From the IMG/VR virus record IMGVR_UViG_2675903538_000004: DNA of 64,000 nt. One strand, 5' to 3'. Below the pieces are notes generated by a model that saw only the letters and a program-made list of their open reading frames with translations, was not told the DNA's origin and did not search any database. The stretch comes from a virus. Taxonomy: Duplodnaviria; Heunggongvirae; Uroviricota; Caudoviricetes. The stretch's first letter is position 1. Each line of letters begins with the position of its first letter. Position numbers and translations under genes: made by a program. Of this stretch, positions 46,831 to 49,389 are shown piece by piece.

Positions 46831-47532
46831 TTATTCTGATTCTCGCTCAAAAAATGAGCTGATAAGGGGAAGCCAATCCTCTGACACTTCGCGAGGTCGC
46901 GGTTTGCCGTGGAAAAAGATTATTCGGCAGTCTTTTGGTAATGCCCCATTCCCCCTGGAGTAACGCGCGCTCGCATATTTTGAACCAGGTTCCACAACAT
47001 CGGCCTTGTAACTTACAAACCATCCTGGATACAGATCCTGAAATGCTGGTGTATCATCGCCCATAACCTTTCGTAAGAACCCCTGGTCACCCCAGCACTC
47101 AGTAGTGACACAACGAGAAATCCAACCTTCCGGATCTTGCCAGAATGAACTCCAGATATGCGCTTTAACACTATTTGGTATCCACAGGGCACCGCTGCCA
47201 CGATATTGTGGATGGTAAAAATCCCTAAGCATGGTGAAGCTGGTTGGTGGATGCTCTAGGATTGGGCGTATATCACCGGCAATAACCGTGTCCAAATCCA
47301 GATAGAACAGATCATCGGTTATATCCGGTCGGAACAACTCGATTTTCGCCCACCAGCCACGGCACTTTTGCCACTGGTTGATCAATGGGATAACTTTGAC
47401 GCCAGGTACATGTAAACACTTCAGGTCTGTCAGGCAAATAATTTCATAGTCTTTTGGCAGTTGATTAACCAGCCACTGCACATCGGAAGCGTTATAGTCA
47501 CCACCAGAGCGAAAAACTAAAGCAATCTTCAT
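46831..47532 (-). CDS. glycosyltransferase-like protein (DxD motif)
   Basis: 233 aa; YLDLDTV motif; weak assignment. Confidence 0.4.
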
Positions 47533-48221
47533 GCTGCACCATCACCTTTCACTTTCATCAATGTCAGGTTTCCGCAAAATACGGCACCAGTGTCGATATA
47601 CTGCTGATTCCAGAATGTCTTCGGGCTTTTCACCGGAGTGTGACCAAAGATAAAACGATCTGCGCCCGAAATTTCGCCACCAATATCATCCATCGAATCA
47701 CTGATACGCTCGCGCGCCCAGACAACGTTGAAAAGCGGCACCTCCTTACCGAATTGGTATTCATTATCCGGATAGTCGGCATGGGCTATAACGATAGTTT
47801 CTTGCCCCGTGTTCAACTCAATGATATAGGGCAGACGCTTTACCAGCTCCACCAGCGCCCAGGCTAATATTTCCTGATCAGTGTCCAGCATGAAGAACCA
47901 TTGTCCGCCATTCATTAGCCAGTTATTCACGTTGCCATCTGGACTTAACGCATCAATCATCAGCCGCTCATGGTTCCCCATCACTGCCCTGAACCAGGGC
48001 ATCTGCAATAGTTCCAGACATTCGACATTTTCAGTACCGCGATCGATAAGGTCGCCGACCGATATCAGTAAATCCTGCGCCGGGTCAAAATCCACACGAT
48101 GGAGTTCGGACATCAGTCTGGTGTAGCAACCATGCAGATCACCAACAACCCAGACATTCCTGTATTTGGTACCGTCGATACGGTGATAAATTGTGGGTGC
48201 CATCATGTATTCTTCAGCCAT
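47529..48221 (-). CDS. ppp: Ser/Thr protein phosphatase (calcineurin-like metallophosphatase)
   Basis: GDLHGC, GDLIDRG, GNHE motifs. Confidence 0.85.
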
Positions 48222-48829
48222 TCTTTAAGAGTCATCTGCGGAATACCTCCCATTTTCCCGCATGAAACAACGTCAATCTGTTCACGCGCAGACTGGAATA
48301 ACAAAGGCAGGTGACTTAGATTTTTTGGCGTGCCGCCGGAGTGAACGCGTAGTTCTTGCGTAGCGTCAACGCCCACCAGAGCTACATGTTTGAATCCGAT
48401 ATGGAAAGCCAGGTTCAGAGCACCATATGCACTATTGCCGCTGGCAATTTCATTCTCATCTTCGCAAAGGCCGAAATGTGCGGACCAGCGCCACGCCCAC
48501 CACTCGGGAGAATTCGTATTTTTTGGCTCCATGCCGCGTTCAGCCACACGACGGAAGCACAGAACGCCATCTCTGACTTCACGTTCTTTAACATCGGGTA
48601 GTGCCATGCAATAACAAACACCACGGCGACGGCGGCCACGACCAACGCGCCGCATATTGTCTGGGGATGGATCAAGGGTGAAAAAATAAGAAGCGCGGTT
48701 AAGCCAGTCGATGGCCCCATTGACCGCTATAATCGGCACTCCGCGCGGCGCAACAAAGTTTGCGGCGCTTGGGCCACTGCCGACGATAATAACGCGATCA
48801 CTGCCTCTAAATTTATTCTTGGGAAACAT
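48203..48829 (-). CDS. Rossmann-like protein with GSGPS motif (MptE/DUF115-like?)
   Basis: [31 protein letters not shown]; paralogue of next gene; start may lie downstream of 48829 (103-bp overlap). Confidence 0.45.
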
Positions 48830-49389
48830 TGAATTGCACTGCTCCTACTTGCATTCAAAATATGTAAATCTGCGTGTTTTTTGCGGGTATCCAGGAACTG
48901 CTGTTGCCATTTTGAAATAGACACCTGCGTTGGATTCCGTAGTGCTTGAGGGTGCGCGCCATGCCAATGAAGGCCGTTTTGCAGAGAACAGTCATAGCCG
49001 ACTAATACCACTACTTCAGCCCCTGATTCAGCAGCCAGACTGATAGCCTGCGCGCCGCTATTTACCCCTTCCGCCGGTCCACAATATCGCCTGTACTCCA
49101 ACGAAAATGATTTCGCCGCCGCCAGGTTGGCTGTCACTTTGCGGAATCTCCCTCCCGGTATGGTGGATCCGTATTGCTTCCACCATGACAAATCACCGGC
49201 GTATAAGGCATAAATGTCATCGAACATCTGCCAGGAATTGTTAACCGCGATGATTGAACAGCCAGTTTTTTCTATAGCAGCACAGTCCTCACGAGTGAGT
49301 GACGGACCGCTACCGACACAAAAAACAGTCCTAGTCGCCCTGGGTGGTATGTTCATTCTCAGCTGCAAATTCAGCCTCCAGGCGAGCAT
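48727..49389 (-). CDS. Rossmann-like protein with GSGPS motif (MptE/DUF115-like?), paralogue
   Basis: VFCVGSGPS..IIAVNNS..NSGAQAISLA..LVGYD. Confidence 0.45.
   Translation of the reverse strand: MLAWRLNLQLRMNIPPRATRTVFCVGSGPSLTREDCAAIEKTGCSIIAVNNSWQMFDDIYALYAGDLSWWKQYGSTIPGGRFRKVTANLAAAKSFSLEYRRYCGPAEGVNSGAQAISLAAESGAEVVVLVGYDCSLQNGLHWHGAHPQALRNPTQVSISKWQQQFLDTRKKHADLHILNASRSSAIQCFPRINLEAVIALLSSAVAQAPQTLLRRAECRL

Follow-up and report, generated by a model that had tools for sequence, protein, structure and literature searches.

What do four consecutive minus-strand genes at positions 46831-49389 of the caudoviral record IMGVR_UViG_2675903538_000004 make, and do they make it together? The 64,000-nucleotide (nt) stretch of this record constitutes the window analyzed here, and an earlier note had grouped the four as one modification module, comprising a protein with a DxD-type motif, a metallophosphatase and two paralogous proteins resembling MptE/DUF115 enzymes. 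In a megablast comparison with phage records, the segment 46500-49600 is phage P1 at 99.5% identity and phage P7 at 98%, both over the full length. The region is thus the pmgN-pmgO-pmgP-ppp-pmgQ operon of phage P1, whose genes are already annotated, and the four open reading frames are present as described, corresponding to pmgO, pmgP, ppp and pmgQ at identical coordinates in the P1 record. Our answer to the question divides the group: PmgO, PmgP and PmgQ appear to form a conserved, mobile and often fused three-enzyme glycan-building cassette, a reading which we hold with a probability of roughly 70%, and the phosphatase Ppp is predicted to be an independent gene that has joined them. The genes of the operon are the following.

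49331-49486, minus strand: pmgN, first gene of the operon, 51 amino acids (aa), GTG start and GGGAG Shine-Dalgarno sequence (P1 annotation mapped onto the window)
48727-49389, minus strand: pmgO, 220 aa, putative glycosyltransferase of the MptE/DUF115 fold
48203-48829, minus strand: pmgP, 208 aa, distant paralogue of PmgO and best-conserved member of the cassette
47529-48221, minus strand: ppp, 230 aa, PPP-family Ser/Thr phosphatase of the lambda-PP/NinI type
46831-47532, minus strand: pmgQ, 233 aa, GT8-like (GT-A, DxD) putative retaining hexosyltransferase

The P1 record lists O, P and Q under "putative morphogenetic function," and RefSeq and PHROGs label PmgO "alpha-2,3-sialyltransferase" and PmgQ "glycosyltransferase." The pmgN product falls in phrog_2350, an unknown-function PHROG. 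A search of the literature on pmgO, pmgP and pmgQ, P1 virion glycosylation, DUF115 proteins of phages and the role of NinI returned essentiality and expression data only, and we found no description of the O-P-Q enzyme combination. New here are the predicted O-P-Q mobile glycosylation cassette, the status of Ppp as a passenger, an ancestral gene overlap, the misleading nature of the sialyltransferase label and a proposal for the donor sugar.

PmgO, PmgP and PmgQ as a predicted glycan-building cassette

Diverse cassette loci came from a scan of genome contigs, the scan of viral contigs having given near-identical P1 copies only. In 23 loci scanned with hidden Markov models (HMMs), a P gene is accompanied by Q and/or O in 21, and all three genes are present in 17; among these are three P1-type copies that are nearly identical and five Pseudescherichia loci that are closely related. 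At least 11 unrelated phage lineages carry O, P and Q as a group, as does one chromosomal adhesin island. They stand side by side in a Citrobacter rodentium prophage, in an uncultured phage contig and in phages of Pseudomonas, Alloalcanivorax and Gilvimarinus, and the combination is also found in genomes of Zhongshania, Microbulbifer, Methylophilaceae, Buttiauxella, Brevundimonas, Sinomicrobium (Bacteroidota) and Longimicrobiales (Gemmatimonadota). All of the cassette hosts found are diderms that bear lipopolysaccharide (LPS).

Domain matches further identify natural fusions in the orders O-P (P0051), P-Q (P0218 and P0291) and Q-P (P0304), as well as fusions with a methyltransferase, namely, Q-P-SAM methyltransferase (P0268; SAM, S-adenosylmethionine) and methyltransferase-P (P0300). 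Variable, glycan-tailoring neighbors of the cassette include SAM methyltransferases (L008 and L102), an FkbM methyltransferase (L108), a Sulfotransfer_2 protein (L010) and, in L003 and L007, a weak Nucleotid_trans-like glycosyltransferase. Co-occurrence in unrelated lineages and natural fusion together imply that O, P and Q act in one pathway.

The motifs GSGPS, IIAVN, NS(G/A) and LVG(V/Y)D, on which the proposed paralogy of PmgO and PmgP had been based, are found in the same order in both proteins. A direct BLASTP comparison is weak, with an E value of 0.004 over 36 N-terminal residues only. Family profiles of 21 PmgO and 33 PmgP relatives, with the fusion protein left out, align over the full length (hhalign probability 98%, E = 1.8e-13), and the AlphaFold models of PmgO and PmgP, both of high model confidence, match identical top structures. 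Given the full-length profile alignment and the same top structures, the paralogy is not due to chance.

For both proteins, the best structural match is Maf (PDB 5mu5), with a sequence identity of just 16-18%. Further matches are the archaeal hydroxymethyldihydropterin pyrophosphokinase MptE (8sd5; 12.8 / 11.4 for the two proteins) and Campylobacter Cst-I (10.9 / 11.0), with SteA, thiamine pyrophosphokinases and GT29 sialyltransferases ranked lower. The suggested resemblance to MptE/DUF115 proteins is therefore right at the level of the fold, and PmgO and PmgP are predicted from their models to be two diverged copies of this fold, to which Maf, the GT42 sialyltransferases and Escherichia coli WaaZ also belong. 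Precomputed matches to the Pfam family PF01973 (MptE-like) are found on several homologues, and the PmgP-like half of the fusion P0051 scores 44.6 bits, over the gathering threshold of 34.6. Invariant residues of PmgO are GPS, D35, N50, D66, WW, SG, G-YDCS and H141-W-H143-G-x-H146, and its C-terminal ~18 aa constitute a non-conserved tail. Invariant histidines follow the GxD strand in both families (H141, H143 and H146 in PmgO; H173 in PmgP). PmgP is 52-63% identical to the Pseudomonas, Alloalcanivorax and Gilvimarinus phage copies.

Searches of PDB sequences with PmgO and PmgP, singly or as family profiles, gave nothing meaningful at E values up to 10, GT42 included. The label "alpha-2,3-sialyltransferase" was considered for PmgO and rejected as a mere fold-level transfer with no sequence-level link to GT42; it is misleading.

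In PmgQ, the sequence LFYLDLDTV occupies residues 75-83, and the DxD-type motif attributed to this 233-aa protein is borne out, its DLDT being invariant in 26 sequences and aligning to the DxD of 6mw5, 5gvv and glycogenin. The complete set of invariant residues in this alignment is W60, K63, D79-L-D81-T, G148-D149, S174-x-K176, H208-G209 and P213. When the 26-sequence profile is compared to PDB, the Skp1 alpha-galactosyltransferase 6mw5 is matched with an E value of 2.4e-7, and weaker GT8 matches are seen to streptococcal 5gvv and glycogenins (E = 0.003 and 0.02). Near the other end of the protein, the invariant FHGxPRP aligns to the PKPW / KPW at the C-terminal end of the matched GT8 chains. 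PmgQ is thus probably a GT8-like GT-A enzyme and a putative retaining hexosyltransferase.

Several results weigh against a glycan-building function. PmgP and PmgO themselves score 20.9 and 23.4 bits against PF01973, under the gathering threshold. PmgQ and two homologues match no Pfam or NCBIfam family at E values up to 0.1, Glyco_transf_8 included. The fold of PmgO and PmgP also covers ATP-dependent pyrophosphokinases such as MptE and thiamine pyrophosphokinase, so that the glycosyltransferase chemistry proposed for O and P rests on genomic association and not on active-site evidence. Because of this association, namely, the O-P-Q fusions and the glycan-tailoring neighbors, the predicted O and P enzymes are more likely to transfer sugars than to act as pyrophosphokinases.

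A fourth conserved protein, of ~192 aa, is encoded after the pmgQ-like genes of two unrelated phages (L003, 9757-10335; L007, 8254-8835). The two versions share 30% identity, one has a weak Nucleotid_trans match, and P1 lacks the gene.

Donor sugar and acceptor

In E. coli, the most plausible donor for the putative transferases O and P would be cytidine monophosphate (CMP)-activated 3-deoxy-D-manno-octulosonic acid (Kdo). WaaZ, the protein linked to addition of a third Kdo in the LPS core, falls in Pfam MptE-like with an E value of 6.9e-7, and the fusion P0051 has a faint precomputed match to PF27901 (WaaZ_KDO_III), a new Pfam family. Genes for making CMP-sugars other than CMP-Kdo (CMP-nonulosonic acids) were found in none of the cassettes. 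In a P1-like Nissabacter plasmid prophage (L112, ~8791-9564), a diverged KdsB-like CMP-Kdo synthetase is encoded between pmgS-like and pmgT-like genes, 2.6 kb downstream of O-P-Q, at the place where P1 has the haloacid dehalogenase-type (HAD) phosphatase gene pap (44688-45194 of the window). The best matches of the Nissabacter protein are all KdsB models (E = 9e-33, under their cut-offs), and the gene is intact in one Nissabacter assembly and frameshifted in the other (L113, 8790-9562). Pap was itself considered as a KdsC-like Kdo-8-phosphate phosphatase, an idea left unsupported by the absence of an NCBIfam match.

We infer CMP-Kdo from host metabolism, the LPS-bearing hosts, the link to WaaZ and the Nissabacter KdsB-like gene, and the makeup of this evidence also tells against the proposal. 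The KdsB-like gene is a single one in one lineage, and the similarity to K-12 WaaZ by hhalign is weak, being local for the PmgP family (E = 0.001, probability 21%, 28 columns) and reaching a probability of 12% for the PmgO family.

In the mechanism that we propose, soluble PmgO, PmgP and PmgQ would cooperate in the cytoplasm during lytic growth, probably as a complex. PmgO and PmgP would each transfer a CMP-activated ulosonic acid, in E. coli K-12 necessarily CMP-Kdo, and PmgQ would add a hexose from a uridine diphosphate (UDP)-sugar. The product would be a short glycan, which in other phages may be further O-methylated or sulfated. The timing is suggested by the regulatory elements around the operon.

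49530-49546, plus strand: C1 operator Op83/Oppp, upstream of pmgN, annotated in the P1 record; its sequence in the window reads CATGCACTAATTAATTT
~49559-49585, minus strand: predicted promoter PpmgN (P1 record)
46813-46829, minus strand: C1 operator Op86a, with promoter PpmgR, controlling pmgR
46764-46780, plus strand: C1 operator Op86b, with promoter PpmgR, controlling pmgR

Op83/Oppp has 4 mismatches to the operator consensus and was therefore missed by a scan allowing 3. Together with PpmgN it is the upstream boundary of the pmgN-pmgQ unit, and Op86a and Op86b are the downstream boundary. Being flanked by C1 operators, the unit is expected to be silent in lysogens and expressed in lytic growth.

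For the acceptor, we favor protein over the LPS core, in the form of Ser/Thr O-glycosylation of lytic-cycle (virion) proteins, and would place this somewhat short of even odds. Maf is a cytoplasmic protein O-glycosyltransferase. The cassette lies directly 3' of the major capsid gene in L007, L010 and L102. In L107 it follows a Mu-F-like head-morphogenesis gene and in L111 the gene of the large terminase, and in L004 and L008 it has lysis genes on one side and terminase genes on the other. This late/structural location of most phage copies counts for a protein acceptor. In three phages that carry the cassette, the capsid proteins were compared at their C-termini; they end in short Ser-rich stretches only, too slight a feature to decide the matter.

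A non-phage home of the cassette is seen in Pseudescherichia chromosomes (L110, 2236-18532; also L096-L100), where O, P and Q occur on both strands, dispersed among adhesin genes. LysR and MscS genes border the island, which encodes a 1169-aa invasin-type inverse autotransporter, containing IAT_beta and several Big_1 domains, together with four further proteins of the Big_1 type. This setting also counts for a protein acceptor, as does the precedent of mycobacteriophages that glycosylate their own virions. The Gilvimarinus phage has, at 6166-6555 of L010, a gene that separates the cassette from the major capsid gene; its 129-aa product contains a mucin-like (PTE)n repeat and is conceivable as a candidate substrate for O-glycosylation.

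A protein acceptor also has evidence to contend with. No Big_1 or Ig-like domains were found in 41 larger proteins of the window, and the literature searched contains no report of P1 virion glycosylation. The identity of 52-63% among PmgP proteins extends across phages with unrelated capsids, which points to a host-conserved acceptor or glycan intermediate and away from a protein specific to one phage, and in Sinomicrobium the cassette stands among nucleotide-metabolism genes (MazG-like and ribonucleotide reductase). The proposal in its complete form, in which P1 and many Gram-negative phages would O-glycosylate virion or late proteins in the cytoplasm with a short Kdo-containing glycan drawn from the CMP-Kdo pool of the host, and Pseudescherichia adhesins would be modified likewise, is distinctly doubtful.

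LPS or another envelope glycolipid is a tentative second choice as acceptor, and other targets are unlikely; what is left over corresponds to the chance that the cassette-level reading is itself wrong. The specific envelope explanation is that the cassette modifies the LPS inner core of the host in the manner of WaaZ, with extra Kdo and a hexose attached on the cytoplasmic side of the inner membrane. The outer-core glucose, which is the P1 receptor, would thereby be truncated or masked, with less superinfection or less loss of progeny on cell debris. The membership of WaaZ in the MptE-like fold family and the faint PF27901 match of P0051 speak for this explanation, but the hhalign comparison with WaaZ itself is weak (probability 12-21%). 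GT8 is a family of LPS outer-core glucosyl and galactosyl transferases, and overexpression of waaZ reportedly truncates the outer core (Frirdich 2003, cited from a reference list). Restriction of the cassette to LPS-bearing hosts, the KdsB-like gene nearby in one lineage and the conservation of PmgP, which fits a host-conserved acceptor, are likewise in line with an envelope target. However, the genes are C1-repressed in P1 and mostly late/structural elsewhere and would thus be expressed shortly before lysis, a stage at which new LPS would presumably be unable to replace the LPS already in the outer membrane. The layout is also unusual for lysogenic-conversion genes, and the Pseudescherichia copies lie among adhesin and not LPS genes. 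On balance, we consider modification of the inner core possible, with the odds against it.

The phosphatase, remaining explanations and the overlapping frames

The description of the metallophosphatase is accurate. Ppp has the canonical motifs GDLHG, GDLIDRG and GNHE and scores 59.3 bits against PF00149 (Metallophos; cut-off 21.5). It belongs to phrog_246 (NinI-like, E = 5e-113), and according to a note in the P1 record it is 64% identical to the lambda phosphatase. The NCBIfam models of PphA and PphB are matched with E values of 3e-81 and 3e-71, at 272.5 bits (cut-off 326) and 239.5 bits (cut-off 332), which makes Ppp, as judged from sequence, a relative and not an equivalog of the E. coli PphA/PphB enzymes. 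It is predicted to be an ordinary lambda-type PPP Ser/Thr phosphatase.

As for the proposal of a single four-gene module, it survives for O, P and Q, which co-occur and are fused, and probably does not extend to Ppp, which is absent from non-P1 cassettes. Phage D6 carries ppp at 89.6% nucleotide identity with O, P and Q absent around it. In the P1-like Nissabacter plasmid, O, P and Q abut directly and ppp is missing. No phosphatase was found among the non-P1 cassette loci scanned, and none of ten unusually long proteins inspected, from the best 150 of 567 family clusters, is a phosphatase fusion. Because ppp is alone in D6 and missing both from the Nissabacter P-Q junction and from all non-P1 cassettes, it is best described as an independent gene that apparently came to lie between pmgP and pmgQ by insertion in the P1 lineage and that shares their transcript and not their pathway.

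The alternative, in which all four genes would form one module with Ppp as a tailoring or regulatory phosphatase in the P-Q slot, draws on the translational coupling of ppp, which overlaps pmgP by 19 nt and pmgQ by 4 nt (ATGA). Neighboring genes of the operon all overlap, N/O by 59 nt and O/P by 103 nt. The alternative draws further on the P-Q junction of other phages, where the intervening gene encodes a SAM methyltransferase (L008 and L102) or a sulfotransferase (L010). This use of the slot for tailoring enzymes tells against a purely passenger role and leaves a small chance for a functional link. The closeness of Ppp to the lambda and PphA/PphB protein phosphatases, together with the distribution just described, makes a four-gene module improbable.

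Of the other explanations, one would have PmgO and PmgP act as ATP-dependent pyrophosphokinases, of the MptE or thiamine pyrophosphokinase type, to activate a small molecule. The top structural match of both is Maf, followed by GT42 and GT29 sialyltransferases, the proteins that accompany them obligately or are fused to them comprise a GT8-like transferase and methyl- and sulfotransferases of the sugar type, and genes of pterin or thiamine pathways are absent nearby, so that this explanation is very improbable despite the shared fold. Glycosylation of phage DNA or nucleotides against restriction is a still weaker candidate. Phage DNA glycosylation is well known, and the Sinomicrobium copy sits between the MazG-like and ribonucleotide reductase genes, but base-hypermodification genes (hydroxymethylase or similar) are absent beside the cassette, most copies are late/structural and sugars are not known from P1 DNA; we rate the idea as highly unlikely. 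It is hardly credible that O, P and Q serve in the structure or assembly of the P1 virion, which is what the historical pmg names, the label in the P1 record and the adjoining tail and baseplate genes would suggest, since the folds are enzymatic, plating is unaffected when any one of the genes is knocked down and they had been scored as non-essential before.

Genome-wide CRISPR interference (CRISPRi) and earlier work agree that pmgO, pmgP, ppp and pmgQ are dispensable for plaques on E. coli K-12 (PMC10695390). Within the operon, CRISPRi knock-down lowers plating for pmgN alone, to an efficiency of 0.014, although this gene too was non-essential in earlier work (PMC10695390). The PADLOC defense-system models gave zero matches for all five proteins at E values up to 0.01.

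The paralogue pair had also been noted to overlap by about 100 bp, and a mis-called start had been suspected as the cause.

48727-48829, minus strand: pmgO/pmgP overlap, 103 nt, with pmgP in the -1 frame

The overlap is real and the suspicion is not upheld. The ATG at 48829 is the only start codon 5' of the first PmgP strand, which is a Rossmann strand, and of the GSGPS loop, which is encoded within the overlap; it sits in the conserved Cys-Phe-Pro codons of PmgO (CAA TGT TTC CC). The O and P frames overlap in nine of nine other loci with O directly before P, by 11-133 nt, and P is in the -1 frame in eight of them. The pmgP-like gene of the C. rodentium prophage has the same start position and the same -1 frame, its ATG lying within Lys-Cys-Phe codons of the PmgO-like gene. 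Among P1-like elements the overlap is 40-49 nt, and the greater length in P1 results from the 18-residue non-conserved C-terminal extension of PmgO. With a single start codon before the Rossmann strand and both the overlap and the -1 frame conserved, a mis-called start is ruled out, and the 103-nt overlap is a genuine, conserved and ancestral feature.

A programmed -1 frameshift giving an O-P fusion was also considered, prompted by the natural fusion P0051 and by a canonical slippery heptamer, A AAT TTA, at 48811-48817 (minus strand). The heptamer is in the pmgO frame, 12 nt 3' of the pmgP ATG and 3' of the last stop in the pmgP frame; about 0.15 such heptamers are expected by chance in the P1 overlap, by our estimate. 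No slippery heptamer is conserved across loci (L004, L095, L010 and L107 have none, and others have different ones), which speaks against the frameshift. Translational coupling is the simpler reading of the overlap.

Known systems and wider meaning

Several characterized enzymes resemble the members of the predicted cassette, and each differs from them in a defined way. Maf proteins exceed 600 aa and have flagellin-recognition domains, whereas PmgO and PmgP are minimal domains of ~200 aa that are paired and accompanied by a GT8-like enzyme. The Maf donors are pseudaminic and legionaminic acid, neither of which is made by E. coli K-12. WaaZ is like PmgO and PmgP in its MptE-like Pfam signal and its host, and it uses the sole CMP-ulosonic acid of K-12. 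It is unlike them in its length (283 aa), its location in the chromosomal waa operon and its lack of a paired paralogue or GT8 fusion partner. With Cst-I and Cst-II, the GT42 enzymes of Campylobacter jejuni, PmgO and PmgP share the fold only, and the donor of these enzymes, CMP-N-acetylneuraminic acid (CMP-Neu5Ac), is absent in K-12. GT8 enzymes (glycogenin, 6mw5, 5gvv and the WaaO/WaaJ type) have the DxD and the C-terminal motif of PmgQ, whereas PmgQ is shorter (~200-240 aa), has its own invariant GDQ and SYK motifs and occurs fused to PmgP-like domains. Lambda PP (NinI), PphA and PphB share all PPP-family motifs with Ppp, which differs from lambda PP in lying inside a glycosyltransferase cassette and not in a nin region.

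The closest functional analogy to the favored mechanism, cytoplasmic glycosylation of virion proteins, comes from phages of Actinobacteria. As summarized in PMC12363180 from Freeman et al. 2023, the mycobacteriophages Che8, Corndog and Myrna use glycosyltransferases of their own, sometimes with a methyltransferase, to decorate capsid and tail-tube proteins. The same summary describes this glycosylation as cytoplasmic and dispensable for growth (PMC12363180).

Two further features of the window lie outside the operon. At 24804-26108 (minus strand), a low-GC stretch (0.41) between a darB-like gene and ref encodes a 434-aa protein with a SIR2_2 domain, at a site where the reference P1 presumably has its res/mod restriction genes; the stretch looks like a swapped defense island. 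The window also encodes a protein with a Tad2-like (anti-Thoeris) domain.

P1 is a heavily used genetics phage in which about a third of the genes, the whole pmg series included, are without known function. With the cassette reading, three "hypothetical" genes become a testable biochemical system in a tool-rich host, and two database labels, "alpha-2,3-sialyltransferase" and "norphogenetic protein," are corrected. PmgO and PmgP would be small soluble members of the MptE/DUF115 transferases and may serve as minimal transferases for Kdo or ulosonic acids. If the product is made on LPS, a phage would be altering its own receptor by a means not seen before. If virions are decorated, phage self-glycosylation would extend from mycobacteriophages to phages of Gram-negative bacteria, and virion glycosylation bears on antibody recognition in phage therapy. 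Should the glycan prove to be Kdo on protein, it would be both the first protein Kdo glycosylation and the first virion glycosylation in a classical coliphage.

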